NCBI GenBank assembly: GCA_977020255.1 | Contig: CDROCS010000288.1 | Coordinates: forward strand, 1,798,001 to 1,862,000 | Length of the DNA stretch: 64,000 nucleotides | DNA from: Obrimoposthia wandeli | Taxonomy: Eukaryota | Direction: 5' to 3' | In this document: one piece after another, positions 811-45,130 of the stretch | How the letters are laid out: the number at the start of each line of letters is the position of its first letter | Position numbering within the stretch: the first letter of the stretch is position 1 | Translations under genes and position numbers: made by a program | The notes under the pieces: model-generated | Seen by the model: the letters and a program-made list of their open reading frames with translations, nothing else | Databases searched by the model: none | Told to the model about the DNA's origin: nothing

Positions 811-904
811 CTGTGCTTCATTTATATTTCCCATATGGTATATTGTATTTATCAAATTATTACATTTTGTCGGTCCACTTCCTTTGTTTGGATAATGAAA
901 TCTA

Positions 905-1884
905 ATATTTCTCACTTGTCGATCTATAATCTTTCTACAAATCGGACATGTTACCATTTCGTTTGCACATCTCCGACATGTTCTCACATGTCCACTCGGT
1001 AAAAAGGCAACTTCTACTTTGTTGACCATACAAACTGCGCATTCCGGATCTTCCAGTATGTATTCTAGTTCGTTTATGTATTATTTCTCTTTTGTTTCAA
1101 TTGTACTGTCATCTTTATCTCGTAGTAACTCAAATATTGATCCGTATCCATTTCGCGTAGTTTTTATTTTTAATTCTACCAATTCTCTAATCCTGTCTGC
1201 TTCTTTTGGGTACAATCTTCTCACGAATGACACTACTGGTGTATCTTGTTGAGCCAAAATATCTTTCGGTATGATTTGGTATTCGACTATACATTCTGTT
1301 TTTGGTTCTTTTTGCTTATTTTTGTTTTTAAAATCAAAAACTCACAAAATTCGTGATGTAAACTTGCAATGCGTAAACTATCAATAATTCGTTCTTTTCT
1401 GCACTTGTGGCATTTAATTACGTCTTTACCATCCTTTTTTATAGCGAAATGTCCCTTTTTTGCCAGCTTTTTAAGTATTGGATCCTCAAAAGTTACCTCT
1501 CCATATTTTTCGTCACATTCGTTTATTTCTTGCATTACTTCGAATATGTCTTCAGTTCGACAATATTTTTTATTTCAACGCACTTTATTTGTACTGTTCC
1601 TCCTTCTGGAATCTGAACATTATTGTCAAAATTTGGTGTTTTTCCTGCTTGAATTTCTGGATCATTTGCAGTTCTCAGTTTTAGGAGGAATGAACATATT
1701 GGCGCTTTCAGTTTATGTAGTCTCATTGGGTTATCTACTTTTTCCCAATTTTTAAATTTTACTCTGCAATATACACAATGTTAATTAACATTTGTAAACC
1801 AGTTCTCGCCATTTTACATGCAATTTCTTTTGAAAAGTGTGGTTTTAGTGACTTCTGTCTATCCCTCTCGATTCTAAAAGAATC
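905..1884 (-). pseudogene. Inhibitor-of-apoptosis (IAP) module: BIR-BIR-UBA-like-RING, reading in frame into PR2
   Basis: BIR1 (~1884-1682): MARTG..[frameshift]..CVYCRVKFKNWEKVDNPMRLHKLKAPICSFL. BIR2 (~1520-1335, divergent): LAKKGHF..DVIKCHKC..HHEFCEFL. UBA-like (~1240-1110): TPVVSFVRRLY..IRELVELKIKTTRNGYGSIFELL. RING (~1044-905): ECAVCMVNKVEVAFLPSGHVRTCRRCANEMVTCPICRKIIDRQVR. Confidence 0.85.
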
Positions 1885-2699: not shown

Positions 2700-4716
2700 T
2701 TTAGTTCTCGCGTCATAGTTCTGGCTTGATGTTGCTCCTTCTTGAGGGCTCGTAACTCATTCTCGTGATGATGGGGCATTAGGTATTTCGCTAAAAATTG
2801 AAAACATCCAATTATAAGCTGTCAGGTGATTCCGGTTATCCTGTACAAACTATATGTAGGCAACACCTGAGCTATAATGACCTGTACAAATTTTATTTTA
2901 ACATAAATACCTATGATACCTGAAAATAATTTTCCTAAAACAAGGAATTTTCCTCACATCTTCCTAAGTGTCTGGTGTGCTGCTTCCTTGAAATGACTTA
3001 CCGACAATATCATATCAAAATTCGAATATGTAGCTCCTGGTGGTAATGCACGGTGTACTATTTCCGTAAGTACTCTGGCCCTTCTTACTGGAAACATTAT
3101 TTCGTTCCAGACCGCTTTTAGATCTTTCTCATTGTATAAACCTGCATTTTCGATATTCCTTACCGCTTCGAATTTCATTTTTCCTTTCAGTGTCATCATT
3201 TTTATAATCTCTGGAGTCGCTGTTTTCTTACGGTCAGCTAAGGTTATCCATAGATCACTCGTCATCTGATATTCAGTTTCCATTATATTGGAGCAGCTGA
3301 TTTCTTTAGTTGGAGTGTCATTAGGAAGTATCATTATAGAGATTGGTTCTACAAAGAGTGATTTTAAATTATACGTCACTGGCAATTCGCTTGTGCATCG
3401 TTCTGTTTTTCTCAACTGTACCGCTACCTTTTTGCACTTAAAAGTATATAGTACTTCTCCGGGAGAAGTTCTCCCATGGTTTTAGCAAATACTCTTTCGT
3501 CTAGAGGCAATAATGGTGCTACCATGTCTGGATTTGTAATAGCTAGTGCTAACTTAGTTCTTATGATCTCCTTGTTTAACTGGCAATCTCTCTCAACCAT
3601 CATCTGATATAACTGTTCCATTTGCATCAATCCTTTATGATAATAGAAATCAATTTTATTATTAAAATACGTGTGTAGCTGCATATCGTTAGGTTTTAAC
3701 TTGGTTCCTGCCATTGCTATTGATTCTCTTGACAAAACTATTCCAGGATAATTTGTAGTACTAACAGTCATTCCGCATCGCACTTTATTTCCTTTTTTGA
3801 TAAATATCAATCTTTCTTCTGTTGATGTTGCCATTAACAGCGTAGGTGTTAGCATCGTAGGAATTGGTCCTGTTTTGTTATGAAATCCTTCTCCGCCTTT
3901 ATTATACAGGAAACCTTTTATTTTATTAAATTTGATTTCTTTCAAAAATATTAACGAGCATTGTTTTGGATCCACTTGATACACAATTGTGGATTCCCCT
4001 GTATGACAAGATGTATCTGTCATTCTACATTCCGGATACTTCATCATTCGTTTTGTAGTTTTATCAAAAATGGCTGTCCCTGTTTTAAATTCAATCTCGT
4101 AAGTCACATTTATTACTAAGGCTGTTACTTTGGTACCACGCATATTTTTTGTTCCTCCAACGCAAGATCCATCAGCCCATCATTGTCCTATTCTCGTAAC
4201 TGTTTCATATCGTCTCACACCAACTTTCGCGTCGGGTGCGTAATTCTTATCTATTTCTATTTTTTCTGTTCGAAATGCGTCTTCGCAATCTTTCGGAAAT
4301 ACCTTGTGTGGTTTATACGGTGTGGTAGGTGTGATTTCAGACAAGAAACTTCTATGACCACAGTAAAATTCATGATAATTTGAATGAACTGAACATTCCT
4401 TCGCTTGTACTTGTAGTTTATCAATTTCCTGGTATACGAAATAGTTTTCTACACCTTTAGCTTTTAATTTCGATGGCTGTGATTCTGGACAGTCTTCGCT
4501 GTCAAGCAGTGAATACTTTTGTCCCATCTTTGGTACGCTACAGTCGTACGCTACTAGTGCTGATGCATGTTGCATTCCCATAAACATTACTAACATCATC
4601 ATCATCATCGTTGTGGACATATTTGGTTGGTTGTTCCTTTCTTTCAGACGGTATTGTTTATTTTCTCTTTTACGATTCTCATGACATTGTTCGTCATCAT
4701 CTTCATTCGTTTTCAA
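2700..4716 (-). pseudogene. Chuvirus-like (Jingchuvirales G / class III-type) envelope glycoprotein, fragmented
   Basis: Internal signal peptide MMMMMLVMFMGMQHASA, then LVAYDC..YSLLDSEDC..KECSV..FYCGHRS; TYFNNKIDF..MEQLYQMMVERDCQLNKEIIRTKLALAITNPD; AGLYNEKDLKAVWNEIMFP; membrane region LFSGIIGIY..YSLYRITGIT..IIGCFQFL. The motif order follows chuviral G as I recall it. Confidence 0.75.
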
Positions 4717-4752
4717 AATTGTTTTAGCGTAATCGCTTAATTTCGCCCAACC

Positions 4753-5790
4753 TCAGTTTTCGTCGATACGTTGTTGTAATACATTCTCAATCAGATACAT
4801 TGCTGCACTTATTCCTTGTTTGACTTCGTGAGCTTGACTCGTTCCTTCCGTCAATTGGAAACATAGGTATGTAATTGCTGTGATTAACTTTTTATAAGTA
4901 ATCTGATTTTCAAATAATCTCGCTAAAACTTCACCATCGTAGAATCTGTCTACTGATACATGATATCCCTGGTTTGTAGTCATTCTTTTTACTGCTGACA
5001 TTTGTGATCTAACTGCTCTAATCAAATTGTCTGTTATATCGGTAGTTTAATCTTTGTACATTTGGAACAACTTCGACTTTACTTGCCTGAGAATTCCTGT
5101 AAGTATGTCTTTATTTCACTCTGCACTATACTTCTCTAATGACGCTGCTAACTGTCCAATGCAGTGGTGTCTCTTCTCATCCGTCTGAAGTGCAGTTAAA
5201 ACATTTCGCAATATACTTCCATCCTTTCTAAGTCTTCAGAGTCCTCTTCGAAAATACTGATACTCAGCTTGATTCTCAGCTTGATCATACGGTTCATCGT
5301 TATATCGTATCTCTTGACTTTGTTCTGCTTCATTCTGCCCATCCTTCATTATCTACTAATTTCTGTTGTTTCACAGTGATGACATCAATTTTCTCTTCTA
5401 ATTAGTTTTCTATCAGATATCCAAACTCGACTGGTACATCTTCATCCTCCAGTGATCTTCCTTTATAATAAAACAACATATTCATTCCGTCTATTCCGAG
5501 TTTCTCTGCTAGTTTTTCGAACAGTTTTAATAGTTTGGAATAAGTTAAGTTTTTCGTGTATAATCTGTCCGGAAATTAATCAAAGTAAAAATTTCATCGT
5601 CCCTTTTTGATTTGATCTCTGTACGTAACGACCGTATCCTTTCAATAATCCTCGTGCTCTTTGTAGGTCAAGTTATCATGACTATATTTAACCAACTCTC
5701 CTCGCATTTTTTCCAATCTGTGTACTTTAATTGTTTGTAGTTTTACCAAAACTTCTGGAGCTTCGCTCGCTTCATCTAGCGGTTGATTAA
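4753..5790 (-). pseudogene. Unidentified decayed coding region between gag and the glycoprotein
   Basis: ORF 4753..5025 plus stop-interrupted frames with the same strand bias; no motif recognised. Confidence 0.35.
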
Positions 5791-5794
5791 ACAT

Positions 5795-6855
5795 TTATTT
5801 AGCTTCACTAATTATCTTTTTCACATTTTTCATACTCTTAGCATGTTTTGCTGCTTCTATATGACCAGTCATAGGTTGTACGTTACACGTTTTGTCTATT
5901 GGTGTCTCATACGCTTCTAGTATTCGGTTCATTAAATCATTCATCTCTTCTCTCGTGTGCAGCTTTTTCCCTTGTTGCGACAGCGTAAATGAATTCGCCA
6001 TTTTTGTATGTGGTGAATCTTTGATTATTCCAAACATCCGTTCGAATTTACTATCACTATCTTCAAAATCTACTTCGCGTCTAAGTTCGGTCTCGCGATT
6101 CCTATCGCTGTTATCATTTATGTAACTAAAATTTCCTTTCGGTTTTGGTGACCTTTCACGACTATTTGTCTCGTCAACATTATTATTACTATTATATCTT
6201 CCTGAATTATTGTATCTCTCAGCTCCTTGATGTCTGTCTGCATAATTATTGTATCTGTCTGGCGACTGTTGTCTATCCATATACTCGTGCGTGCGGCCAA
6301 GGTTCTCAAAACATACGCGCATTCATTCACGCTCTCGTCAGGTTTCTGTTTTTGTTCTCTCAAAATTCGCTTATTCACTTTTGCTAAGTCTCCCAATACC
6401 AATTTTTCAAAAAAAGCATCAGCACGTTCTGCTTCTGTCAAGTGTTTATACACTTTGAGTGCTAATCCTGTCAAATGCACCTGTACGCAGACACCTTTTT
6501 CTCTATCGTTCCATCGTTGAACGTATGCGCAACTCAAATATTCAGCGAGGAAGTCACAAATACTTTCCTCATCTCCTTTAAACTTTGTAATCTGCAATGA
6601 TCCCGAAACTTTTGGTCTCAGCGTTGCATTCAAAACGTGTGCCAACTGTTCTGCATTCATATTACCTAAGTTATTTCCTGCATTATTGCCTGGTTGAGCT
6701 CCTGCGTGAGCCATGTTTTCAGCTATATTTTCAGCTATTTCTTCAATATTATTCAAATTAACTTCCTCAATCTCTTTTAGGTTGGCAATTTTGATCTCTT
6801 CTTGATTTGATGCTTCAATAACTTCAATTTCTTCTGGGTTTACTTCACCAAACAA
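5795..6855 (-). pseudogene. Retrotransposon gag (capsid-like domain), frameshifted
   Basis: ITKFKGDEESICDFL..QRWNDREKGVCVQVHLTGLALKVY..LREQKQKPDESVNECAYVLRTLAAR, the typical Gypsy gag major homology region. Confidence 0.8.
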
Positions 6856-7159
6856 ATCAGTATATTCAAAACTGTCGGTTGAAACTGCTGATTGATTAAC
6901 GTCTCTTTCTGATATGTTTTCTTAGATTCTAGCTTCTTCTATTACTTCTTTATCTGTTTGAAAAACCTGTTCAACTCGGTTCGAATTATTATTTATATAT
7001 TCTTGTAGAATCTGACTTTGTCTTCTAGTATTAAACGCGGGTCCTTTTTTTATTCGTTGTCTTATCAATTATGTATTCGTTTATTTCCTACGATATCGAT
7101 TTACTTATTACTTTTATATCTCTTTTCTCAACTATCATTTTATGAATTCTTATACCAAT

Positions 7160-7692
7160 TTGTCTCTTCGAGGAACTTATCTACTCGATTTATCAACCTA
7201 TTTAATTTATCTCTTCGAAGAATATATCTACTCAATTTATTTAATTCGAGGAATATATCTAATCGACTTAACTTATTCAATTTATCTCTTAGAGGAATAT
7301 ATCTACTCGATTTATCTTATTCAATTTATTTAATTCGATGAATATATCTACTCGACTTAACGTATTCAATTTATTTACTTCGAGGAACTTATCAACTCGA
7401 TTCACAAACCTTTTCAACTTAATTACTTCGAGAAACGGATCAACTAGATTTACAAATATATTCAATTTACTTACTTCGAGGAACGGATCAACTCGATTTA
7501 AAAACTTATTCAAATTACTTACTTCAAGGAACGGATCAACTCGATTTACAAATATATTCAATTTACTTACTTCGAGGAATGGATCAACTCGATTTACAAA
7601 TATATTCAATTTACTTACTTCGAGGAACAGATCAACTCGATTTACAAACTTATTTAAATTAATTACTTCGAGGAATATATGAACTCGATTCA
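7160..7692. repeat. 48-bp tandem array (about 11 degenerate copies) in the retroelement leader
   Basis: Unit CGAGGAACGGATCAACTCGATTTACAAATATATTCAATTTACTTACTT; 16-aa periodicity in the overlapping ORFs. Confidence 0.9.
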
Positions 7693-7800
7693 AACACTTA
7701 TTCTCAATTCTCTTATCTCAATTTACTCATATATTCTTCTCTATAACTTATTTTTAATTTACTATCTTATTCTACGTGAATTCGCTGTGTCCGATGAGTT

Positions 7801-7819
7801 ATCCTCACTCGGGGCATCA
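7801..7819 (-). promoter_or_regulatory. Primer-binding site complementary to elongator tRNA-Met
   Basis: Minus strand reads TGATGCCCCGAGTGAGGAT, resembling TGGTGCCCCG(T/A)GTGAGGAT (complement of the tRNA-Met(e) 3' end); 8 nt from the LTR end CCCCAACA. Confidence 0.7.
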
Positions 7820-7827: not shown

Positions 7828-8211
7828 TGTTGGGGTTTCTATTTGAAATTAGATCTTCGTATGGAGGCCCCAACGTGAGTTCTATAGAACTAGGGCTTGC
7901 AGATGGTCGTGGCCTATTTAGATGTTTTCTTACTTATCGAAGTCTCAAAATTTGAAGGTTTTCTTATTGTAGTGTGAGGTGTGTATAGAGTTGTGTGCAC
8001 AAGTTATTGCGAGGTTCCCTTATTGTAGTATTGTGTATGGAGGGATTGGTATTGTACTGATGTGTGGTGGTTAATTCAAGGTACGCTACTTTTTTTAGGA
8101 AAAATCTATTCTTTATTTCACACTAAACTAAGTTTCTAAAAATTATAACAACTAATCCTATGACACTTTATTCAACTTCACACACTAAATGAGGATGTCC
8201 TTAACCTAACA
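7828..8211 (-). repeat. Putative 5' LTR (minimum extent; may extend to 9466)
   Basis: TGTT...AACA termini (plus strand TGTTGGGG at 7828, CCTAACA at 8205-8211), adjacent to the PBS; the partner LTR is not in the window. Confidence 0.5.
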
Positions 8212-12884: not shown

Positions 12885-14920
12885 CTACAACTCTGTCTTG
12901 GCATCATCCTTCTTGCTGTCACCCTCAGCTCCTCCAGGTGGTGGTGGGGTTCCTCCTTGTTGCTGGTACAGCTTCGTCATGATGGGCTGTACCACATCTT
13001 CGAGCTTCTTCTTCTGAGCCTTGAGCTCCTCAGCCTCAGCATTGGCGTTCTTCTCGAGCCAGCTGATAGCTTCCTCGGCCGCCTTCACCACTATCTCCTT
13101 GTCGGCTGGAGTCAGCTTTCCTCCGAGCTTCTCCTTGTCATTGGTCTGGGTCTTAAGCGAGTAAGCGTATCCTTCCAGCTCGTTCTTGGCTTCGACCTTC
13201 TCCTTAACCTTCTTGTCCTGCTCGGCGAACATCTCAGCATCCTTGATCATCTTCTCAATATCCTCAGTGTTTAATCGGTTCTGGTCTTTCTGGATGACGA
13301 TCTTGTTCTTGTTACCAGTACCCTTGTCCTCAGCAGACACTTTCAAGATGCCATTGACATCGATCTCGAATGTGACCTCGATCTGTGGCACTCCACGAGG
13401 TGCTGGTGGGATTCCAGTTAGATCGAATTTACCGAGGAAGTGGTTATCCTTGGTCATAGGTCTCTCTCCCTCAAATACCTGGATGGTAACGGTGGGCTGG
13501 TTGTCAGCGGCAGTGGAGAAGACCTGGGATTTCTTGGTTGGGATGACGGTGTTCCTGGGGATTAACTTAGTCATGACTCCACCCACAGTTTCGATACCCA
13601 GGGTAAGAGGACACACATCGAGCAGAACAATGTCACTGGTATCCTCGGCACCACCAATGATTCCGGCCTGTACCGCAGCACCGAAGGCCACAGCCTCATC
13701 AGGGTTGATGCCTCTGCTAGGCTCCTTACCATTGAAGTACTCCTTCACAAGCTGCTGCACTTTGGGAATTCTGGTACTACCTCCAACCAGCACAATCTCA
13801 TGTACATCCTCCTTCTTCATGTCACCATCCTTCAGCACCTTCTCCACTGGCTTCATCGTGGACTTAAACAGGTCCATGTTCAGTTCCTCGAATCGAGCAC
13901 GAGTCAGTGTCTCACTGAAGTCATCTCCTTCAAAGAAAGATTCAATCTCGATTCTGGCGCTATGTGCGTTACTCAGTGCTCGCTTTGCCTTCTCTACCTC
14001 TCTTCTCAGCTTCTGGATAGCCCGATTGTCACCAGTGATGTCCTTACCCTTCTTCTTCTTGTACAACTTTCTGAAGTACGCCATCACTCTCTGATCGAAA
14101 TCTTCACCACCCAAGTGAGTATCACCATTGGTGGCAACCACCTCAAACACACCGTTATCGATTGTGAGCAGGGATACATCGAAAGTACCACCTCCGAGAT
14201 CGAACACTAGAATGTTCTTCTCGCCTCCCTTCTTGTCCAGTCCGTAGGCGATAGCGGCAGCAGTGGGCTCATTGATGATTCTCAGCACATTCAACCCAGC
14301 GATGGTTCCGGCATCACTGGTGGCTTGTCTTTGAGCATCATTGAAGTAGGCGGGAACAGTCACAACAGCATGAGTTACCTTCTTACCGAGATATGCTTCA
14401 GCAATTGTCTTCATCTTTCCAAGAACCATTCCAGAGATTTCTTCCGGTGCGAATTGCTTGGCCTCTTCACCAATATTGACCTCAATTACAGGCTTGTTGT
14501 TTTTGTTGATGACCTTGAAGGGGAAATGCTTCATGTCTTCCTGGACAGTCTTCTCCTGGAATGTGCGACCAATAATTCGCTTAGCATCGAACACTGTGTT
14601 CTCAGGATTGGTGGTCAATTGGTTCTTGGCGGCATCACCAATCAATCTCTCGCCTTCTGGAGTGAAGGCAACATAAGAAGGTGTGATACGATTTCCCTGA
14701 TCGTTGGCAATGATCTCAACACGGCCACCTTTGAACACTCCAACACTGCATTTTTAAATCAATTTTATTGTCAATAAAATAATCATTACCATGAATATGT
14801 TGTTCCGAGATCAATACCAATAACGGTACCGTACTCTTCCTTCTTCTTCTCCGTTTTCTCTTCAGTAGCAAATACCGACAGTATTGCTATCGCAAATATA
14901 AAAAAGAACTTAAGTTTCAT
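12885..14920 (-). CDS. HSPA5: ER Hsp70 chaperone BiP/GRP78, 663 aa; exons 14920-14790 and 14745-12885, 44-bp intron 14746-14789
   Basis: Signal peptide [18 protein letters not shown]; [12 protein letters not shown]^VGVF; Hsp70 signatures [14 protein letters not shown]-like and [13 protein letters not shown]; C-terminal KTEL; GT-AG intron restores the frame. Confidence 0.97.
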
Positions 14921-16324: not shown

Positions 16325-19300
16325 ATGAAATTTCCCTCCACACACGTGCCCGGTTTTAAAGGACAGTGGTAATCCCAGGGAGTGTGGATTAGCCCCGACA
16401 TATCCTCTTGCCCAAGTTTTAATTTCCTCATTAACATTCTTAAACTACATTGTTGCACAAAACTGAACCTTAATCTGGCCTGATTTAGTCACTTCTGATT
16501 TTAATATATTCTCAATATTTGAATCTACATCTACGTTTGATAAAAAGTTTATTTCCCATAAGCACCTTAACTATAACGTATTTGTTATTTAGATGATACT
16601 CTATAGTAACACCGTTTTCCCTCCATTTCTTTGGTGGGGCATTATCAAGAAATTTGCCTCGCCTCTTTCTATCTACAATTGCAAACAAAAATCCCCTTTA
16701 GTGAACAACAAGTCTACTAGTTTTATTAAATAGAAGTCCTGTTGATGTTTTCGACTGTGCTGCTGATATTGAGGCTATGGTGGCTGATGTAGAGGCTATA
16801 TTATATAATTTAAAACGAATTACCTCTTAAGCCAGTCAAGCATGACCCGGGTGCCACCATCGTTGATCGTGGTTATGAAATCAAAGACACGCGGGATATG
16901 TGGCTCTGAAGGTCGATAATTTATATACTGAATAAAATGTATTAATAAAATTGTATTTATTTTAAACATTACCTCTAAAGCGTGCAAACATCGATGTAGG
17001 CTCTTGCACTGAAAGGGCATGACAGTTGTATATGGGAACATCATCGGTGATGTCAAAGAAATTTCTGATTTAAAAAAGTAATAAATAATTTAAATGCGCT
17101 TTTTAAATTCAATTTAAAAAATCATAACCAGAATTATCTTTGAAACCTGATGAAGCAGATTCAACTGCCGCTGGTTGGGGAAGTAAGTCGTCTTCGTCGA
17201 CGGCATCCATCTATCTGCCATTATTAAACTGGAAATCGGATACGTCGATTCCGTCCAACCAGCTGTTATTGCTCCACTGCGTTAAATGCTGTTCCATCAA
17301 GAAATCCGGTTGAGTGATTTAATCCATCCAGTCATTGTTCAAGAGTTGAGTTGCAGACACTATGTTCTTCTCCTCAAAGTCCTTCTTCTTTCTTGGTGCA
17401 CTTTTTTCTGGTCCTTCTCACGCTCCAGCTGTCATGCTATTGCATACTGTTTATGGTTGAAACAGAATACATGGCTGTTGGTTGTGGATTCTCCAGTTAT
17501 GCCATGAACTCGTTCAACCCAGCACCGAGCCAGATCCTCTTCAAATTCTGGTTTATTGATGCCCAGAAAGAAGAGATGCAGCCTCCCAAGCTCTTGCCAA
17601 GTTTTGACTGAGACTGGATGGCTGATGAATAACCGGTGGCGTTGGAGTATAGTTTATAGACAAGGTCTCATGCTGTCGGCGCTGGCTGGGAGAAGGAGTA
17701 ATCTCGATCGTTAGGGATTTTTTCGTACAATATCAATATCAATATTAATTTTTGAAATGTTGCAGAAGCAGCTTCAATGCCAGAAGGAATTCTAGTGAAA
17801 CAGTACTGTGTCATTTTGGTAAAATATGCAGTGGTTAGTTTTGAATTTAAAGATAATTTGACATGATAATATACACTACCTAAGTCTAGTGATGTAAAAT
17901 ACTTCGCATCTACGAGTACATCCATCATTTCTTTAGTATTTGATAATGTAAAAATCGGTATTTCAGCAACTGCATTTAATGCTCTGTAATACAAACAAAT
18001 TCTTATATCATCAGTATTCTTTTTTCTAACGCATACAAGAGGTGAATTCCACAGAGATTCACATTTTTCAATTATACCCTTTGTTTTCATTTATTTTAAA
18101 TTATCGTTTATTTTAATCTAATAAATTATGTGGTTGTCTTCTAGGGTTAATAACAATCGGAGGTCCTTGCGTCACTATGTTATGTTTTACTATAACTGTT
18201 TTACCTATATCCCATTTGTTTTGCAAGGGACAGGGATATTTTAAGTTTTGAATCATTATATTTATAGAATGTCGATCATTCATAACATCATAATTTATAT
18301 TGTTTAAACAATTTACAAATAAATTTATATTACTAAAAACGTCAACATATTTTTAAAATTCACAAATATCTAAAGTACTACTAATAAAATCCCTCATACT
18401 CACACATTAACATAAGTTAAACGTTCATTGCTCAATATGACACTTACATTGTTGTTATCACTCTGACAACCTCCTCGTGCAGTGGATAGTTGAAGTGTGG
18501 GTCACGTCTTCTAGCATCTTTTTCACTGACATCTCCAGAGTCGTTGTCTTCAACTACAGCAACTGGAATCCGGCCTCTTTGATCTCCTCTAACTTCGTAG
18601 CAATGGTGCTTGAAATGGCCTTTCTTCTTACAATGGGAACAACTTACATTATGGCATTATGCTCTCTTATATCCCAGCTCTTTACAAGCCCTGCATCATT
18701 TTGTAATTTGCGAATTGTAATCGGAATTTCTTTGGTACGTTCTCTTATTTCCATATTCCTTTTTCTCAAACCGATATTGACTGTTGTCCTTTTTCATTGC
18801 ATTATTCTGGTGTTGGTAATCATGTTGTTGATTCAAATGGTGTTGTTGATAAGGTGCTCTGTCAAACCATTGTTGGTGTGGTCTTCTTTCTGCTGCGTTT
18901 GCATAACTCTTTCTTATTTTGATAGCAGGTAGTTCTTCAGTTGAAGTCAAATTCTTTCTGATCGTGTCCATCCGAGAAATAGTTTATTTTATTTCCTTCA
19001 AATCCCGAACATTGCGTAGCTTCAATTCTTTCAATGCATCTGAACTCATCGAGTTATCCAAAATGCATTTAATGATACCTTCTTTAGTAATAATCTTCTT
19101 TGTCAATTTCCCTACTTTTTAAAGTATGCATAAACATTTTCTGTTGTTTTTTTGTAACTCATAGTCTATGATAAACACTGGAACAATGTTTTCTTCAGTA
19201 GAAAGGCTTTTCTGTGTCGTTCTTTTTTCACTCGTCTTCTCGTATTCATTGTTGGCTTCATTTGATAGGAATACGTTGATGAATGTCGCTTGCAAATTTT

Positions 19301-23144: not shown

Positions 23145-25008
23145 TTCCAGCCGGGATTCAGCCGGGATTCAACAAAAACAATTTTTTACTGAGAAATAAA
23201 ACTTCGATGGAACTGAAATTTTGCATGTAATTTGAGATCGATGTCTGGTCACCGTTTCCAAAGTTTCATTCAAAAATATTTATTTCTTCCGGAGATATTC
23301 TCCACCAACCCAGGTTCTACCAGCATTTATACATTTCTGAAACTAAATATCGAAATGTCAATTTCCGGCTCGCGCAACCGCCGAACACAAACCGCTGAAA
23401 TTTGGCAAGCAATTTGTGATCGATGTCTGGCCACCGTTTCCAAAGTTTCATTCAACAAAAAAGTTCAAGGGTCCAAAGATATGACTCAATAATCTTAAAA
23501 ACTTTATAAGACCTTGTCAGTGGTATATATAATTTTGTTAAATTTCTTAAAACCAAGCTATTTAGTGGGTTTAACACAATCTAATGTTAATTATTCAATC
23601 CGTTCAATGGTTCTAGAGATATGAGGTACCAAAAGTCTATATTTAGGGGAAAATGTTGAAGTATTAAAACAAAACATCTGATTCTTTCTAAAACTTAATG
23701 CAAAGTAGGAATAGATATTTGCAAGTGTTTAAATCCATCTGTAAGACAATCAAAGTTGTAATTGTTGCTAAAGTTTGGATCTAAAGGGCAAATGGGCAAC
23801 TCTTAGGAATCGTGGGACCATTATTGATGGAAAGGTATGGATAATTTTAATAAACAATGATAGCCATTTCCATTGGTCTTATTGGTATCTCTATTCTGTG
23901 TGAACTTTAACTTCATAGCACTGTCTAAATAACCTACACTGAGTGGTACATTTACTATCTCTGATATAGTGAGGGGAGATGTTGGTCAATGCGGATCTCC
24001 TCAACCACGAGTCATATTGACAAACGGCTTTTTGTATAGTGTTCAGGATACTCTAGTCTATGTTTCTGGAAGATTTCAATACGGGGGATATTATTGGGCC
24101 AATGTTTTATCAATGGTCAAAATATGGTACTACAAGGTTCATTTTCGATAATTTTCAATCCTAATGGAGCAATATGGATAGCACCATCGTGTTCCTGATC
24201 ATCGATATAGTATATAAGGAATATAAAAAATGTGAGGAAATATATTGGTAGAATGAATATATTAATAAGACAAATGGAAATGACTATCATTGTTTATTAA
24301 AATTATCCATACCTTTCCATCAATCCCACGTTTCCTAAGAGTTGCCCACTTGGCTTTTAGATCCAAACTTTAGCAACAATTACAACTCCGATTGTCTTAC
24401 AGATGGATTTAAACACTTGCAAATATCTATTCCTACTTTGCATTAAGTTTTAGAAAGAATCAGATGTTTTGTTTTAATACTTCAACATTTTCTCCTTAAT
24501 ATAGACTTTTGGTACCTCATATCTCTAGAACCATTGAACGGATTGAATAATTAACATAAGATTGTGTTTAACCCACTAAATGTTATGGTTTTAAGGAATA
24601 AAAATAAATTATATATACCACTGACAAGGTTTTATAAAGGTTTTAAGATTATTGAGTCATATCTTTGGACCCTTGAATTTTTTTTGTTGAATGAAACTTT
24701 GGAAATGGTGGCCAGACATCGATCACAAATTGTTTGCCAAAATACAGCGGTTTGTGTTCGGCGGTTGCGCGAGCCGGAAATTGACATTTCGATATTTAGT
24801 TTCAGAAATGTATAAATGCTGGTAGAACCTGGGTTGGTGGAGAATATCTCCGGAAGGAATAAATATTTTTGAATGAAACTTTGGAAACGGTGACCAGACA
24901 TCGATCTCAAATTGCATGCATAATTTCAGTTCCATCGGAGTTTTATTTCTTAGTGAAATAATATTTTATTTGAATCCCGGATGAATCCCGGATGAATCCC
25001 GGCTGGAA
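23145..25008. mobile_element. Fold-back / non-autonomous DNA element with ~740-bp inverted arms and a ~380-bp spacer
   Basis: Arms 23145-23883 and 24265-25008 are reverse complements (TTCCAGCCGGGATTCA...TGAATCCCGGCTGGAA); the same ORF appears on opposite strands (23232..23492 +, 24632..24910 -); no TSD identified. Confidence 0.85.
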
Positions 25009-33500: not shown

Positions 33501-33916
33501 AAAAGTTGTTTTATGATACCGAATGTCCTTGTGTTGTATTCTCGCTGTAATATCACTATTATCTAATTATAATGGTCAATTAACTCATATTCTACCAAGT
33601 TAGACAAAGTTGAAGATGTTCCTGAGAATGCACAAGAGGAGTTCATTGAACTCATTACCAGCGATGCAACAAAAACTGATTTTTCTTCAATATCAGTTAC
33701 CAAATTTTGGATCAAGAGTTTGCAGTCATATCCTGTTCTGTCTGAGATCGCATTGCGCCTGATTCTTCCTTTTCCAACAACATACCTTTGTGAAACAGGC
33801 TTTTCAAGCTTGTTGGTTATCAAATCTAAATACAGGAGCAGAAGATGATCTGCGTTGTGCTCTTGCAAAGACTGCTCCAAGGATTTCAGATCTGGCGAGA
33901 AAGAAGCAATCACAGT

Positions 33917-35075
33917 AGTAGGTAGAAGGATGGAGTCTAGACCACTTGACCCCCCCTGTGTGCGCACAGAATGTTAAAGGATTTTTTCACCATAAGGGTG
34001 TCACACCATAAGGGTATATGTTGCCTCACCATAGAAATGTCACACCATGAAGGTATATGTTGACTCACCATAACGATGTCTTGCAACACCATAAGGGTCT
34101 GGCTCAGAAAGGTTAAGATAGAGGGGAGGGAGGAAGGGTCAATTGATCTAGTCTCCACCCTTCTTTGGTATACCATTAAAGGGTTGTGATCGTCCATAAT
34201 TTAAAGGGTCAGGCATAGTTTTGACTTGAAGGTTTTAAGGTATGGTCATGACCGTCTATGGTTGGCCATCACATCTAAAGGGTTGTGGTTGTCCATAAAT
34301 CAAAGGGTTAGACTCAGTTTTGACTTGAAACTTTGAAGGTATAATTAAGGTCAACTTTGGTTGGCCATCACATCTAAATGGTTGTGCTCGTCCATAAATC
34401 AAAGGGTCAATGTCAGTTTTGACTTGAAACTTTGAAGGTATAATTTAGGTCAACTATGGTTGGCCATCACATCTACAGGGTCATGGTCGTCCATAGGTCA
34501 AAGGGTCCGGCTAATTTTTTTTTTTTAAATATCAAGGTTTTAGTACATGGTTGTAATCATCTTTAGAAGGTGAATTCACCCATAAAGTATGGCCGTCCAT
34601 AAATCAAAGGGTCGAGCTATAGACCAAATCAAGTTTTAAATGTCAAGGTTTGAATACATGGTTGTAATCATCTTTAGAAGACGAATTCATCCATATATGT
34701 ATGGTCGTCCATAGATGAAGGGTTAAAGAAAAGTTGGAATTTCATAGTTTCAAGTACATGGTTGTATTTGTCAACATATTACGCGTTTATTCATGTAAAA
34801 TTTTTATGGTCGTTCACAAGGTAAGGGTTAGATTTGGCATAAATTAAGAAATTATATAGTGTTCAATCAATTATTCTATGTGAAAGTTCACTCTTAAAAG
34901 TTAAGGAATGTATTACGTAATCACACATACACTATTCTATGTGAAAATTTAGTATAAAGTTCACTCTTATCAGTTAAGGAATGTATTACGTAATCATACA
35001 CACACTATTATATGTGAAAATTTAGATCAATATTTTTTCCTAGGCTTACACATCCAAAGAATTATGTTAAAATTT
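33917..35075 (+). repeat. Polinton left TIR with internal tandem subrepeats
   Basis: Reverse complement of 45688-46537 plus extra subrepeat copies (e.g. GGTTGGCCATCACATCTAAAGGG units). Confidence 0.9.
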
Positions 35076-35136
35076 ATAGTAAATCAAAAATAAATAAGAA
35101 AGAAGTCAGAGAATAATACAAAATTAAACACATTTA

Positions 35137-38100
35137 TTATGTAATTTCATAATGTCCATAAGCGCGGCTTCTATTTTTCTCGATCCAATAGCGTTTGTCA
35201 TCTGATGAGCTGAGAGCAGTCTTTTGTGTTATGATTGTGTATAGTTGATGATTTATTGTTCCAAACTTCTTTTGTGGTATAGTATATGCATTACCGTTTT
35301 CATACACGTCTAAATATGTTTGATGTACAACCGTTGATCCCTTAAGATTTACTCCTTTTGCTTTATTATTTTCAAAGTCATCTTCAAATTTAAGTGAATT
35401 ACATTTACAAAGTAAGAAAATCCATTCTTTATACATTCTTCCTTCCGATTCATCTTTAAATAAACCTATTTTACTATTAAATTTATTAGAATATAATGGA
35501 TCATTCACATTATAATTTGACGTATCTAATAATCCATCTGCAATCATTTTTGGTAACAACTGCTTTCTTAAATTAATGTTTTTACATTCCAAAAAGAATG
35601 AGTCGGTATCACCGGCAACTATATTAATTGAACAATTGAATAAATTACGATATATTTGCAAATCATGATACTGAAGAGTATACATTCGTAATTTGCTAAG
35701 GTCTAGTACAGCTTGGCCTATATAATTTGGTCGATCGAGACAAATAAAGTCTTTTCTTAATAAAACAGCTATTAAATTATCATGAATTTCAATTGTTCGT
35801 TGAAACATAGGTTTGCTAGTATATGTAATTAATTTTGTAGAACTAGTGCAGATGCGAAGATTCAACCGTTTCTTAACATTTTCAACGGTCTTTCCATACA
35901 AACTAACATTTTTAAGTTTATAAAAATCTTTGTCACATTTATTCGTTGCTTGTGATCTCATTTCTGAATTATATTCTATATATTCTGCGAATATCTTAGC
36001 CTGAGAGAATTTTACTGCTCGATGAATAATTGTTACCACTGCTCCTAAACTAACATACATCTGCAATAGTCTCCAATGAATAACATAATGACTTTTTAGC
36101 GAATGCGTCATTAAAAGTTTTTCAACTTTTTTACCAGGTGGACATTTCTTTTCTGGAGCTATAGGAAGATCGTCTAAAAAGTCATGAAGGTTTTCTGGTA
36201 TTACCAAGTCTACTTCCATAACATAACCATATTCAATATGTTCCATGTTCACATTTTTCATTTCATGCAATATTTCGTTTAATTTTATATCATCAAGAAT
36301 CCATTCAAAATCTCCTTTTGGTAAAGGTTGATCAAGAGCCCATCCATATAAATTATTAACATCTATATATAAAAGACTTGTTTCTTCATCAGCGACTACA
36401 TGATGCTTATTGACAAATGTCATTCCTCCTCGTATACCCGAAGAAATCATGTTGTACATTTCAGGATCCTGCATCAGTTCAACCTTATGTTTTAACATTT
36501 TTAGAGCACTTGCCCAACTCAACCCAGGAATGCTAAAAAGTTAAGTGGTTCTAAACCATCTTCACTGAGAGCTTTTCTTCTGAATGTTTGAAACACGTCA
36601 GCTAATAAATATACGTCAGTCTTTAAGTAAACTAACATATAATCCAACATATTTCTACAATTGGTTATTTTCCAAACATCTTGTGCTTTTTGATATTCAG
36701 TGTCTGTGATTTTATCATTCCATTTTACTGGTAAACTTAACTTATTCTGGAGGACATTTAATGATGTAGCAAAATCATATAGGAATATTCCTTTGCCATC
36801 AATAAGTTTAGATGGAAAAACTGATCTTGTTAATGGAATAGTTGGTAATTTACCGGCTAAATTTTCCAAAGATGATTGCAAAAATTGCAAAGAATCTATA
36901 AATCTCAGAGTTATTTGACCTAATCTTACAATCATGGCTTGAAACATTTCCGTTGATTGTGGTATAATATTTATATCCCAGTCAGTAAATTTATTCAATG
37001 CATATTTTAAAATATGATGTAAATCATAACCTCTGAGATTATGAAACACAATAGGTAAAGTTGGACAAAGTTTTCTTGATAAATTACATTCATTGCATGC
37101 AGGATCTAGATACTTGCCAGTAAAGTGATCATGATCTTTAACATATTTTTCAGATGATTCGTGACATAAATAACATTCATCGGCATTGCTAAATGTACGA
37201 ATCTCTGCATTTGTTAAGGGAATCATTACGTTTTTAAGAGCATCTAAATACCATGGCAAAACCTTTTCTTTAGCCAAGTTCTCTATTGACTGAAGAAATT
37301 TAACTATGCAGTCATCACCAACATTATGTTGATACTGGGTTTCAATTTCATCTGTACTCATAAATAACATACCAGATGCGACAGGCATATGCTTTTGATG
37401 ATAACTCTCATCTGGTACTAATACAGATTCAAAATCAGCGTAAACGACATATTTCGGTGATATAGTTTTTGACCAATCGTTGAATTTAACGTACTTATTC
37501 TTAGGCATAGTATACATTGTAGTGCTTTCTTGATTATAGTCACATAAAACTTTATGCTTTTCTAATTACAAATCGGTTTTGAAACCATGTAAACACTTTT
37601 CACACCATTTTCTGCTAATTCTAGTCTTTCCAGTTCGAATATTTAATAGTCGGTTAAGACAACTTATTCCTATATAATGAAACCGTTCCTTGGATTCTAG
37701 TAACAATAAATTAACTATAGTTCCTTCCTTCATTTTTGATTGGTATACAACATCGATATAAGGATTCTTGATAACATCAGTTTTTGATTCTTTTTCACTT
37801 ACCTCGTTGAATATGAATACATTTATTATTATACCAGGATTTTGCCGTTCAAATTTTGATATATTTGATATTTTCATAGGCATGTCTTCGGTATTATATA
37901 CAAAATCATTTAAAAATCTTTCATAGTTGCTTGGTCTATTTCTATGTGATTCTATTTCATTATATTTAAGTATTGACAATATTGCATAAATAAAGCAAAG
38001 ATTATCAGAGTTTAGAATATTTATGACTGCTTTAGATTTTGTAAGAGAATTTGGTGATTTAATATATGAATGACCTGACAATGCACAAATTTGACTATAT

Positions 38101-38408
38101 TTAGTAGCTATAAATGCATATTCAAGTATATTCATCAATTTCCAACAACTACCCTTTTCTGAATATTCTTCAACTTTATTTTCCATTGTATCTTCCATTT
38201 CTGAAATTATAGCATGTGAAAAAATCATTGCTCGATGTGAAGCATACCATTCTTTAGTTTCTCCATCATTCTTTTCAAACCTCATTCTGATGATGTATTG
38301 AATCTTTGCATTTCCCATTAATTGCACTATTCTTTCTAGTTCATTTAATAATGAAACTGGAACCTTAAGACTTACAAGATTGAGATGATCTACTTTCATG
38401 GATATCAT
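35137..38408 (-). pseudogene. Protein-primed DNA polymerase B with an endonuclease-VII-like HDH..C..CN insert
   Basis: YADFE, HDHFTG..ACNECN, FHNLRGYD, DSLQFL, IRGG, YIDVNNLYGWA, YGKT, DTDSF motifs; in-frame stop at 37566-37568 and a frameshift near 36540. Confidence 0.93.
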
Positions 38409-38488
38409 TGAATAACTATTTTTTAACGATGTTTTAGTCTGTATATTGTCATTTTTTTTACGTTTTCGTGACGGAGTAGAAGCTGGAA

Positions 38489-38827
38489 TTACTTTATTGA
38501 TGGTTCATTAATTATATCAGTTCTTTTGCTTAAAACCGGTACTTTAAATAATGTTTTCTTACTACCATTTTTATATTCTTTTAAATGACTAATATGTCGA
38601 CTATAAAAGAAGTTGTAATCAACATTTTCAGTGCTTAAACATTGTGGACATATGAAATAATTTATTCTTTTGTATGAATAACCATAATAATTTTTCATGA
38701 TATCATGACAGACTTGAGGATTAAAATCTGTTTCCGATGAACAATAATTTGAATAAGTTTTACATATACTCATCTGATGATATGATTGGTATTGAGACAT
38801 TGATTGATTTGATTGGACTTGAGACAT
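38489..38827 (-). CDS. Polinton hypothetical protein with a CPQC..H motif
   Basis: Intact 112-aa ORF divergent from the TBP-like gene. Confidence 0.5.
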   Translation of the reverse strand: MSQVQSNQSMSQYQSYHQMSICKTYSNYCSSETDFNPQVCHDIMKNYYGYSYKRINYFICPQCLSTENVDYNFFYSRHISHLKEYKNGSKKTLFKVPVLSKRTDIINEPSIK

Positions 38828-38899
38828 TTTGATCTAAAAAAATAAATAAAAATAAATATATATATATATAAATACAATAATTTAATTATTTTACTTACA

Positions 38900-39364
38900 A
38901 TGTTAACAAATATTAATTATAAAGGAATTTGCTTAGATGATGTATCCAAATTAAAATTTCGAACACGACCAGAACAATACGTTTATAAAGCCAAAGATTA
39001 TACAATACTTATTTTTAGAAATAAGAAATGCAGGATTATGGGATGTAAGGTACCTATTAAAAATATTTCTTACCCTTTAAGAATAAATATACTTGGTATT
39101 CAATCAATTACGGTATGTGAAAATTTAGATCAAAGTATCAATCTATTTAAATTATGGAATGTGTTACGTAATACATGTTCATTTGACCCTGAGGTTTTCC
39201 CAGGCTTAAGATTAAATATTTTCAATCCATTGTGTGTAAATATTTTCACATCTGGAAAGGTCGTAATTTTAGGTATTAGAAATTTAGATTTTCAAAATCA
39301 AGTTAACGATATCATGACATACATTAAAAAAATTTTATATAAATACGAAACAATTTCTAATTAA
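38900..39364 (+). CDS. TATA-binding-protein-like protein (two-repeat TBP fold), Polinton-encoded, intact ORF
   Basis: TNINYKG..TILIFRNKKCRIMGCK (repeat 1); IQSITV..SFDPEVFPGL..VNIFTSGKVVILG (repeat 2, hallmark of TBP: YEPELFPGL..LIFxSGKxVxTG). Confidence 0.85.
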   Translation: MLTNINYKGICLDDVSKLKFRTRPEQYVYKAKDYTILIFRNKKCRIMGCKVPIKNISYPLRINILGIQSITVCENLDQSINLFKLWNVLRNTCSFDPEVFPGLRLNIFNPLCVNIFTSGKVVILGIRNLDFQNQVNDIMTYIKKILYKYETISN

Positions 39365-39379
39365 ATCATTCAATTTTAA

Positions 39380-39730
39380 ATGTCTTATAAAGCTGTTCAA
39401 AAGTATTACGAGTATGATATGTTCTTCTTGGCATCTGCATGGATTCATCCAATGACTATGCCAGTGACATTATCGAAAACTTCGTACAATTACCGAGTCT
39501 CTGATTTTGACAACAAAGACATTCAACAACTCAATGATGTCATCAAATATTTGAAGATTGACGTTGAACTTGAGAATGAGGGTATATTTATGCGCGGAGA
39601 TAAGTGTAAATTTTATGATTGTTCCGGAACAAAGATTTCGGATAATCAAGAAGATGGAAGAAGTTGGATGCTCGAAATAAAAATTCTCGGATATAAAATA
39701 AATAAAAAGAATCAAACAACTCTCATCTGA
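39380..39730 (+). CDS. Polinton hypothetical protein
   Basis: Intact 116-aa ORF between the TBP-like and ATPase genes; beta-rich, function not recognised. Confidence 0.5.
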   Translation: MSYKAVQKYYEYDMFFLASAWIHPMTMPVTLSKTSYNYRVSDFDNKDIQQLNDVIKYLKIDVELENEGIFMRGDKCKFYDCSGTKISDNQEDGRSWMLEIKILGYKINKKNQTTLI

Positions 39731-39839
39731 AGGATTCATACAGCGACCGAATATTTTGATGTTTAATAAATAAATATTTAATAAAATGTTGTTATTGTTA
39801 TAAACATGGACTTATTCTGATATATTTATTTTATATTAA

Positions 39840-39873
<34 letters not shown>

Positions 39874-39875
<2 letters not shown>

Positions 39876-40504
39876 GTTATTAACAAACAATTCGACTTTT
39901 CAAGTAGTAGGACCAAGTGGTAGTGGAAAAACTTTATTTGTTTGTAAATTATTAAATTCAAAAATGTTTAAAAATAAATTTAATAAAATATATTGGCATC
40001 AAGGTGGTGACGGAGAAGCTGGTTTAACAAACCAAGAATTTAATAAAATAAAAAAACATTAAGATTATTAACGGTTTTGATGAAAATTGGACTACAAGAC
40101 TCGTAAAAGGTGATGTAATTGTTATTGATGACTTATATCAAGAGGCTAACAAAGAATATGATTTTAATGATTTATTTACAAAAATTGCAAGACATAGAGA
40201 AGTTACTGTAATTTTTATAACCCAAAATTTATTTCATCAAGGAGGAAATCATCGTACTCGTAATCTTAATGTACATTATTTGATTTTATTCACAAATCCT
40301 AGAGATCAAACAGTGATAGATTTTATTGCTCGTCAAGCATTTCCTCATAACAAGAGTTATTTAATTGATGCGTTTCATGATGCTACATCTTTACCTCATG
40401 GTTATTTATTTTTAAATTTTACTCTATCATGTCCTGATGATTTAAGAATTGTTACTGATATATTTAACCGTAATGGTATTACAGTCTATAAACAAAATAA
40501 ATAA
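39874..40504 (+). pseudogene. A32/FtsK-like packaging ATPase, premature stop at 40060-40062
   Basis: Walker A VVGPSGSGKT, Walker B IVIDDL, KIARHREVTVIFITQNLF, YLILFTNPRD. Confidence 0.9.
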
Positions 40505-40524
40505 TAATAAAGTTTTAAAATAAA

Positions 40525-40935
40525 ATGAATTTTAAAAAGAGTATTTTTAAACATAGTAAAAGGACAGATAAAGATGAAGTTAAAAAATTAATAAACACTG
40601 TATTATATGATCGTAATAATATTGAATTTTCAAAAAGTTTACCTTATTTTAAAACCTTAATTGACGTATCAAAAACGAATAAAATGAAAATATTGAAATC
40701 ATTTCCAATTTATGTAGTTGATGATTTAATAAAAATTTTAAATAAAATAATTTATGGTAAAATTAAACCTGATCCTAATATTTTAAAATATAAAAATTCA
40801 TTAATAAATTTAGCAAATTCACGTGGTAAAATTAATAAGAGAAACATTATTTACAATCAAAATGGTGGATTCCTATTGGCCATACTGCCCGCTATAGCAT
40901 CAGTAATAGCTGGTCTTATAAGTTCAAGAAGTTAA
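40525..40935 (+). CDS. Polinton core/cement-like protein ending in an adenovirus pX-like GGFL..I motif
   Basis: C-terminus NQNGGFLLAILPAIASVIAGLISSRS. Confidence 0.6.
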   Translation: MNFKKSIFKHSKRTDKDEVKKLINTVLYDRNNIEFSKSLPYFKTLIDVSKTNKMKILKSFPIYVVDDLIKILNKIIYGKIKPDPNILKYKNSLINLANSRGKINKRNIIYNQNGGFLLAILPAIASVIAGLISSRS

Positions 40936-41063
40936 AACTATGCAATACTTTCGTTTTATACAAACATATAAACAGATTAAAATATATTTAACTTTTATAA
41001 TAATGGGGATAAACAATACAAAGTTGTCTAACTTATTTATAAATTTTAATTCTTCATGCTGCA

Positions 41064-42090
41064 ATGGAAAAGATTTGGAACAATCCAGAAGATCCAGACG
41101 GGTATACAGGGTTAGAAAAATTGACAAAAAGAGTCAAACAATCAAAAGCAAATACACAAAAATGGTTAAGAAATGAATTATCATATAGTTTGAATAAACC
41201 TTTAAGACGTAAATTTCCTACTAGATCATATAAAACTAATGGTATTAATTCCTTATGGCAGATGGATTTAATGGAAATGATACCTTATTCTTCAGTAAAT
41301 AACGGATTCAAGTATATTTTAACTTGTATTGATGTATTTAGTCGTTTTGCAAGGGCAGTTGGTATTAAATCAAAATCGGGTATTGATTTATTACATGCAA
41401 TAGAATCTTTAATTGTTGATGATGTACCAGTAAATATCCAAACCGATGAAGGTAAAGAATTTTTTAATTCACATGTTAAGAAATTATTTAAAACTGAAAA
41501 TATCAATCATTATTCAGTATATTCTCAATATAAAGTTGCAGTATTTGAAAGATTTAAATAGAACGTTAAGAGAATGGTTAAAGAAATAGTTTACTAAACA
41601 AGGTAATAAGAAATGGGTGAATGTATTACCAAAAATTATTTATGCTTATAATAATTCTAAACATAGAGGTTTAGATGGTTTAAAACCTGTAGATGTAAAT
41701 AATAAAAATGAATTTGATATTTTGTTGAAACAAAATCTAAAAGAAAAGAAAGTTAAATCTAAATATAAAATTGATGATTATGTTCGAATATCAAAAATAA
41801 GTACAAGTCCATTTATTAAAAATTTTAATCAAAATTGGAGTGATGAGGTTTTTCAAATTCATGATATTAATTATAAACAAAATCCAATAATGTATATTTT
41901 AAAAGATATTGATAACGTCATCATCAAAGGAAAATTTTATAAACAAGAGTTACAATTAATTGATAAACCTAAACTATATCGAATACAAGAAATTTTAGAA
42001 ACTAAAGGTCGTGGTAAGAATGAACAATATTACGTAAAGTGGCACGGATACTCTGAACCTTCTTGGATATTTGCTTCTCAAATTGAATAA
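41064..42090 (+). pseudogene. Retroviral-like DDE integrase with a C-terminal chromodomain-like region; frameshift at ~41557 and stop at ~41586
   Basis: LWQMDL, YILTCIDVFSRF, IQTDEGKEF, ERFNRT, YRIQEIL..YYVKWHGY..SW. Confidence 0.92.
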
Positions 42091-43103
42091 TGTCAAAATA
42101 TATTATTTTACCTAGTAATAGTTGTCCAAGTACTCAACCTAACAATACAGCCAATCAATTTACTGTAGATTGGGAAAACTCTCTAAATTTAGATGGTGAA
42201 TGGGAGGTTGCCTTGACTGAATTTGTATTTAATTATACTCCTTTAACAATACAAACTAATTCAAAAATACTTTATAAAATGGAAAAGATAAAAATGAAAA
42301 TTTTCGATGTATCTTTTGCAATTTTAAATGGATTAATTTTTAATAATTTAAATAATGTTTTCAATTTCAAAATTACAAAGGATGAAAAATTAGAAATAAG
42401 TACAATTAACAGTATTCATCGAATGTTGTTAAAATTCAAAACTTTAGAAGAATCAAAAATTATAGGTTTTAATGAAATACAAAAAATTTCTAGTCATGTT
42501 ATAACAAGTGATGAAATTGTTGACATAAATAAAAATATTCATGCTAAAATGAGAATTACAATTTATTCTTTAGCTGAATATGAATACGAAATAAAATTTA
42601 ATCAAAATTATTTGATACAAGATAGTTCTTCATTATGTAATATTATAGCCAGTAAATGTAATGAAATTTTTAAAAGCTGTAATATAGATTCAAACGGATT
42701 ATTTGATATTTTAATAAAGAAAAATGTAAAATCAGTTTTATTTGACCAAAAACTTGCATCTTTATTAGGTTTAAATAATGTTTTCTTTGAGAAACGAATT
42801 AAAGGTTTTCAAGAACCAACACTTTCCAGCTCATATAATCAAATGTATATTTATACTAGTTGAACAGATTCTGTCTTAGTAGGATCTGATTATGTTCCAC
42901 TGTTAAAGTCTATTTGGTTAAAATCATTAAAATATCGATATGGAGATGTAGTAAATGTTAAAATTGATAATCCAATGTACTTGAAAATGAGAGATTCAAG
43001 TATTAATAGAATCGAGGTAAATATACGTGATGATTCTGGTAATTTAATTCCATTTTCATATGGAGCAAAAACTAGTTTAACTCTTCATTTACGTAAAGTA
43101 TAA
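42090..43103 (+). pseudogene. Minor capsid (penton-like) protein, premature stop at 42861-42863
   Basis: YIILPSNS..NNTANQFTV..LNLDGEWEVALTEF; reads on in frame YIYTS*TDSVLVGSDYVPLLK..IEVNIRDDSGNLIPF..LHLRK. Confidence 0.85.
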
Positions 43104-43139
43104 ACAATATAAATATATTTAAAATATAAAAATATAAAA

Positions 43140-44757: not shown

Positions 44758-45130
44758 AGTAAGCTTATTGTATATTATATTCTTTATTAAAATTAGTACT
44801 TTAGAAATTCATAAATCCGGAAAAATATTATTGAATAACAAATTTAATGAAGTATATTCATTGGATAAAATTCCATCATTAAAACCCGGAGGTTACATTA
44901 TCAATACTCATACTTCAAATCTACCAGGCGAGCATTGGATAGCAATATTCGTTGACAGATTCGAGATTCGAGTGTTTGATCCTTTTGGATTCTATTATCC
45001 TGCAAAGTTGGTGTCTACACTTGAAAAAGAAAACATTCCAGTCTACTATAATCGAGTTAAATGTCAGAATCCATTAACTAAAAACTGCGGACCTCTGAGT
45101 CTTTTATGGTTGAAACTTCAACACAAATAA
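44750..45130 (+). CDS. Adenain-like cysteine protease
   Basis: IINTHTSNLPGEHWIAIF, FDPFG, Q....KNCG catalytic motifs. Confidence 0.88.
   Translation: MYEVSLLYIIFFIKISTLEIHKSGKILLNNKFNEVYSLDKIPSLKPGGYIINTHTSNLPGEHWIAIFVDRFEIRVFDPFGFYYPAKLVSTLEKENIPVYYNRVKCQNPLTKNCGPLSLLWLKLQHK

Follow-up and report, generated by a model that had tools for sequence, protein, structure and literature searches.

Our analysis of the window (the whole 64,000-nucleotide stretch of Obrimoposthia wandeli DNA considered here) indicates, with good confidence, that it holds the remains of one member of a giant, high-copy Gypsy-type LTR retroelement family of the Burro kind, in which an IAP lies in one frame between two proteases, was likely captured from a spliced host mRNA, and would have been kept for helping infected cells survive. 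In particular, window 889-1875 encodes an IAP-like module made up of one BIR followed by a second, derived BIR, a segment resembling a UBA, and a RING of IAP type; aspartic proteases of the decayed element flank this module on both sides (all element coordinates are on the minus strand, and domain limits within the module were transferred from a natural unbroken copy). BIR1 (1676-1875) retains its four zinc ligands but is broken by a frameshift, and its Pfam match (PF00653, E 5.9e-7, window 1535-1777) covers the C-terminal half only. The second BIR (1300-1523) matches weakly (E 0.068). BIR1 has the canonical form CxxC-x16-H-x6-C, with ligands kept in 29-30 of 30 copies, whereas the second BIR reads CxxC-x18/19-H-x3-C, a derived form common to the whole clade described below. 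The UBA-like segment (1102-1254) has no match in Pfam; it aligns weakly with the UBA of cIAP1 (2.6 bits) at the expected place and has a counterpart exon in a cellular IAP gene. The RING and its tail (889-1059; PF13920, E 2e-12) share a frame with protease 2, and in the frame at 700-1077 the RING continues into the DTG protease with no stop between; unlike the RING of canonical cIAP/XIAP-type IAPs, it is not at a free C-terminus. The original prediction, made from the letters, had named two BIRs, a UBA, and a RING running on into a protease in a dead copy, and this description holds, with Pfam matches for BIR1 and the RING, a weak one for the second BIR, and none for the UBA. Specifically, five frameshifts and six in-frame stops lie between protease 1 and the dUTPase-like part, the third RING cysteine is replaced by serine (it is C in 28 of 30 copies), and the copy is truncated ~80 nt left of the window, before the reverse transcriptase (RT), with no RT found within 20 kb downstream.

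The remainder of the window copy can be followed part by part. The 3' end of the 5' LTR, ending CCCCAACA, lies at 7828-7926; the rest of this LTR is unrecognisable, position 8211 being a possible, unconfirmed start. A primer-binding-site-like motif, which we take to correspond to tRNA-Met, follows the LTR end at 7803-7819 and is also present in other copies, and the 5' leader (7148-7742) consists of tandem repeats with units of 44-48 nt. The gag region and its downstream spacer (5600-7050) are broken, ~1 kb with the CCHC knuckle being absent from this copy; the family as a whole gave one CCHC knuckle match. A ubiquitin/SUMO-like domain maps to approximately 5385-5550, with matches to PF00240 in other copies (E 0.009 and 0.024), the better of which is below the curated cut-off, yet at the expected place upstream of the Bcl-2-like stretch and the envelope. 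The possible Bcl-2-like domain (4735-5160) is weak (PF00452, E 0.11-0.16): it shows a BH2-like end only, has an hhalign probability of 14%, and has no match in the ESM Atlas, and two structure predictions, one of them for this stretch, had mean pLDDT of 39 and 41, too low for use. Elsewhere in the same genome there are eleven Bcl-2 family matches (L176-L186), three of them nearly identical and none of them the retroelement's segment. The envelope-like fusion glycoprotein, of Monjiviricetes type, occupies 2780-4620 in three broken pieces (PF24664, E 5e-30, 4e-17, and 3e-16). In one other copy, a DEDDh exonuclease frame (PF00929, E 4e-9; L025:3363-4340, minus strand) stands at the envelope's place and is probably an inserted element. 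Protease 1 (2135-2404) and protease 2 (520-813) both have profile matches, with limits mapped from an unbroken copy. The conserved segment between protease 2 and RT (180-468) is dUTPase-like by position only; it has no Pfam or PDB match, carries a strong purifying signal, and has a homologous segment in an unnamed polyprotein, P0007.

Other features lie elsewhere in the window. Pieces of other Gypsy-like elements (RT, integrase C-terminal end, and gag) are at 17749-18223 (minus), 58147-58698 (minus), and 61596-63220 (plus). A long foldback element at 23148-24994 has arms that are 94-95% complementary and 182-nt internal repeats. An uninterrupted 622-aa BiP/GRP78-like Hsp70 frame ending in KTEL (identified by eye) is at 12885-14753 (minus), with a GC content of about 50%, versus 25-30% in its surroundings.

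The window copy belongs to an abundant family of giant Gypsy-type LTR elements, a class that rests on LTRs and gene order. The LTRs read TG...CA, and gag is followed by protease, RT, RNase H, and integrase in the order found in Ty3/Gypsy LTR retrotransposons. Matching 4-bp flanks were found in both of the two-LTR elements checked, which are other copies, and in three of four solo-like LTRs, with a mismatch in one case; nine further LTRs read adjoin internal sequence. The element spans about 23-27 kb. A DNA search of its own genome (1.35 Gb) gave 5,278 candidates and a protein search 24,790, numbers that are not copy numbers. All 40 of the DNA candidates scored match at ≥83%, and the 114 protein candidates scored all match over close to the full length of the IAP (358 aa) with 89-100% identity; by our own count, 59 lack any stop. 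Divergence among copies averages 9% and is 11% for the window copy.

Copies were also picked by the protease-2 region alone, to avoid selection by the IAP itself. Among 29 other copies so picked, the RING is present within 1.5 kb in 29, the UBA-like segment in 27, BIR1 in 25, and the BIR2-like domain in 24. The case in which other copies lack the IAP, raised beside the original prediction, is thus contradicted by both sets of copies. Zinc ligands and catalytic residues are conserved; the Asp of the two proteases is retained in 24 of 24 and 28 of 30 copies. Natural stop-free frames in other copies read envelope-PR-BIR-RING-PR-RT (1,415 aa), PR-BIR-RING-PR-RT-RH-IN (1,602 aa), and gag-ubiquitin-like-envelope-PR1; the first two answer the proposed search for an IAP, a protease, and an RT in one ORF. 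From the overlap of these frames (gag to PR1, envelope to RT, and PR to IN), we infer a single gag-env-pol ORF of ~5,400 codons in working copies. The earlier prediction missed both this ORF and the upstream envelope gene. After the integrase, the polyprotein continues into a dual-specificity phosphatase (E 1e-42; L105:1806-3992), and close to the 3' LTR the element has a further, small RING ORF outside the polyprotein (L105:5529-6263). No whole open frame was found among seven long regions read, so the family may be inactive in this genome. That the twin proteases arose by nested insertion of two elements is rejected, as both proteases occur within single natural frames.

The IAP module is under purifying selection. 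Single-base codon changes were counted against the commonest codon in each column, and changes shared among many copies, which arose while the family was replicating, were compared with private changes. For the IAP, the nonsynonymous-to-synonymous ratio (N/S) of shared changes is 0.21-0.36 times that of private changes in four settings, from 0.21 in the 30 DNA-picked copies (p 7e-10) to 0.36 in 70 copies with CpG changes left out (p 5e-4), with p-values that are generous, since shared changes were counted without a tree and the copies are related rather than independent. Open frames are over-represented among the 40 copies picked by protein; the 30 picked by DNA give the same result. In the same count, the ratio is 0.06-0.12 for the enzymes and 0.56-1.69 for the linker that precedes the IAP. 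Among the IAP domains, the BIR2-like domain gives a firm signal, the RING and the UBA-like segment a weaker one, and BIR1 the weakest (0.31-0.59); for both BIR1 and the RING alone, it is non-significant once CpG changes are left out. These observations support an IAP that belongs permanently to the polyprotein, in frame and under selection, and not one inserted later into the window copy. That a processed host IAP landed by chance in the window element only, and has no role, might be suggested by the broken state of this copy and its intronless IAP; the in-frame presence of the module throughout the family, the RING in all 29 protease-2-picked copies, and the purifying selection refute it, and we give it practically no weight.

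The frame and tail of the RING suggest how the module would work. IAP RINGs need a free C-terminal tail to dimerise and to act as E3 ligases, and Tyr-Pro is a pair cut by retroviral proteases. The element RING continues into protease 2, so cleavage would be needed for a free C-terminus, and conservation of its tail extends as far as a Tyr-Pro (Y in 30 of 30 copies and P in 27 of 29). In 124 of 141 other IAPs, the protein stops 13 residues past the final RING cysteine; Polinton IAPs stop 18 residues past it and the cellular gene 17, whereas the element continues. (The accompanying RING-only tree is a quick version on 60 columns: 8 of 159 rows without a RING match, and one duplicate dropped.) Since IAP RINGs normally end the protein and the tail is conserved to the Tyr-Pro, the proteases would be predicted to release a near-native IAP. 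In working copies, one polyprotein of ~5,400 residues would comprise gag, the SUMO-like domain, the possible Bcl-2-like domain, envelope, PR1, IAP, PR2, RT, RNase H, integrase, and phosphatase; the flanking proteases would cut out the IAP, leaving its RING to end near the position at which cellular and Polinton IAPs end; and the released IAP would be a free E3 ligase that damps caspase-driven death of the cell making the element.

Direct binding of caspases by the element IAP is uncertain, because two positions of the BIR1 groove, which we take to have a role in caspase binding, differ from those of BIR3 of cIAP1 and vary between subfamilies, and because BIR1 is the least constrained IAP domain. 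The altered groove would also suit a module that is mainly a counter-defence ubiquitin ligase or signalling adaptor, acting alongside the phosphatase, the SUMO-like domain, and the second RING, rather than a caspase inhibitor. Each of the eight RING ligands, like the tail F/Y, is retained in 28-30 of 30 copies, which agrees with such a role, as does the ubiquitin- or signalling-related nature of the element's other cargo. We nevertheless consider this somewhat unlikely: a possible Bcl-2-like domain lies within the same frame as the IAP, and the BIR+RING region of Burro1 is reported, in the passage of PMC13465017 that cites Lee et al. 2026, to guard stem cells from caspase-mediated death. The same passage lends backing to the earlier proposal that the IAP keeps host cells alive.

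The IAP has a cellular relative in the same genome. When 1.84 billion proteins were searched with a profile, three stand-alone proteins aligned with the IAP over its whole length (P0008, P0050, and P0075), and word-index protein searches returned two and one distant proteins only; the N-terminus of P0008, used as a query, led to one locus in the element's own genome. The cellular IAP gene (G000:C369:359239-346141, minus strand) has six exons, five GT-AG introns, no internal stop, and the same derived second BIR as the element. The element IAP is colinear with this gene and intronless across its exon joints, which argues for capture through mRNA. In a 21-row tree, the element, Polinton, and cellular IAPs and the three database proteins form one clade (100/100), outside which fall 10 canonical IAPs, and the inner branching is without resolution. 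An AU test mildly rejects the element IAP and this genome's cellular gene as exclusive sisters (p 0.032), which suggests as donor an earlier form or some intermediate; the best fit is a capture long ago. The IAP was thus likely captured from a spliced host IAP mRNA, with the cellular gene as the likely source-gene lineage, and the earlier suggestion of a captured host IAP serving as a polyprotein domain is borne out to this extent by the clade and by the selected, family-wide frame. Viral contigs contain eight loci with canonical-looking IAP ORFs; two of the eight were placed in the tree, a comparison of host and viral IAPs being what the original prediction had proposed, and both fall outside the clade. 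No IAP of this kind was found among 156 candidates from metagenome contigs. The genome search with a canonical IAP was dominated by Polinton copies, and other cellular IAPs may be hidden beneath them.

Polintons of the same genome carry IAPs of the same clade. When the genome was searched for BIRs, 28 of the 30 best loci proved to be a stand-alone IAP of the element's type that lacks introns, and among 150 BIR matches scored there are many open frames of 301 and 341 aa. All four of the Polinton IAP regions read contain packaging ATPase, integrase, capsid-like, and polymerase-like genes, and three of the four lie within terminal inverted repeats; at least two Polinton families are represented (e.g., L118, L128, L132, and L136). 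A Polinton-like element at G000:C4062:168570-185099 (L198-L200) has 5.3-kb inverted repeats that are 97.6% alike with an IAP gene in each, and a core with ATPase, integrase, and capsid-like genes but no polymerase frame reaching 150 aa; the BIR and canonical-IAP genome searches repeatedly show comparable pairs of IAPs spaced 10.6 kb apart. The window itself contains a Polinton (33913-46537) with terminal inverted repeats, polymerase, ATPase, integrase, and capsid genes, a TBP-like ORF at 38846-39364 (identified by eye), and no IAP match.

The retroelement might therefore have obtained its IAP from a Polinton, or given it to one, by a single capture followed by exchange between mobile elements. 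The intronless stand-alone Polinton IAPs are 31-46% identical to the element IAP in aligned parts, and an AU test does not reject a joint LTR and Polinton clade (p 0.12). The best tree leaves the two unjoined, however; the best pairwise match of the element IAP is the cellular gene (207 bits), not the Polinton IAPs (144 and 126 bits); and the element keeps a second-BIR start that the Polinton IAPs have shortened or lost. We regard such exchange as quite unlikely, and capture from the spliced host mRNA as the preferred origin. A broader proposal, possible but held only tentatively, is that one cellular IAP lineage was taken up in one genome by two unrelated element classes, an enveloped giant retroelement and Polintons, and possibly passed between them, the space between the twin proteases serving as an exchangeable cargo cassette from which captured proteins would be freed with ends close to native. 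Should repeated capture or exchange be true, different selfish elements within one host would share apoptosis control as a target, and the benefit reported for Burro1 may extend beyond the retroelement.

Baculoviruses and other large DNA viruses have captured host IAPs of BIR-BIR-RING type. These are free genes of canonical type and, for the two viral-contig IAPs tested (L188 and L190), lie outside the element clade. IAP and Bcl2 homologues are described for adintoviruses and Polintons in the relevant passage of PMC8502044, a likeness to the Polinton-type elements found here with a free IAP of the retroelement's clade; that passage connects Polinton IAPs neither with an LTR element nor with any named source gene of the host. 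In a literature search with Grohme et al. 2018 and Lee et al. 2026 outside its scope, no report was found of an IAP clade common to an LTR element and Polintons. A closer relative of the retroelement in layout is P0007, which reads env-PR-[cargo]-PR-RT-RH-IN and is 43% identical to the element over 952 aa. Unlike the element, P0007 has no BIR or RING match; it has C2H2-like motifs (identified by eye) between its proteases and a third protease after the integrase. Twin proteases without a BIR or RING between them suggest that the space they enclose may be an exchangeable cargo slot.

The nearest known system is Burro. The planarian element Burro/GYPSM1 has one ORF of 4,873-5,140 aa with gag, a SUMO-like domain, BCL2, an in-frame env related to mononegavirus glycoproteins, BIR, a dUTPase-like domain, and RT-RH-IN (PMC6431247, section 7). 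A BIR in a Gypsy polyprotein was thus already noted for GYPSM1/Burro1; of the earlier interpretation, the IAP as a polyprotein domain and its kinship to a host gene are supported, while the idea that an IAP is not standard Gypsy cargo is not supported. According to the passage of PMC13465017 citing Lee et al. 2026, Burro1 has taken up a 'B-IAP' with BIR+RING, distributed across freshwater and land planarians, that shields stem cells against apoptosis mediated by caspases; an in-frame IAP in an LTR element that keeps host cells alive is therefore already published. The excerpts used from PMC11410931, PMC8532177, and PMC13238120 add nothing further on element domains. Like Burro1/GYPSM1 and Burro-2 to -4, the present family has one huge ORF, gag, a SUMO-like domain, a mononegavirus-like env in frame between gag and pol, a BIR (+RING) module, a segment between PR and RT, and then RT-RH-IN; it also has very many copies, and decayed Burro copies are reported in one species in the excerpts used. 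Set against the Burro elements by their descriptions, the family here has a dual-specificity phosphatase after the integrase and two proteases around the IAP. Unlike Burro1, it is about 23-27 kb rather than over 30 kb, and it has one CCHC knuckle match and no MATH/TRAF or ankyrin Pfam match in the frames scanned.

We therefore file the family as Burro-like and not as Burro1, because the strict Burro1 features (MATH, ankyrin, and a length over 30 kb) are absent and the evidence for the Bcl-2 and dUTPase domains is weak; compared by domain description rather than by sequence alignment, it works like Burro1 and has its rarest traits. This resemblance also makes a planarian host likely. What is added here comprises the likely source-gene lineage, the same IAP clade free in Polintons, the two proteases bracketing exchangeable cargo, and the phosphatase domain; the first three may already be covered by the primary Burro papers. 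To the known Burro1 picture, this genome contributes the intron-bearing gene lineage from which the IAP likely came, evidence that the captured module is under selection, the prediction that the RING tail must be cleaved, and numerous Polintons whose IAPs belong to the same clade.
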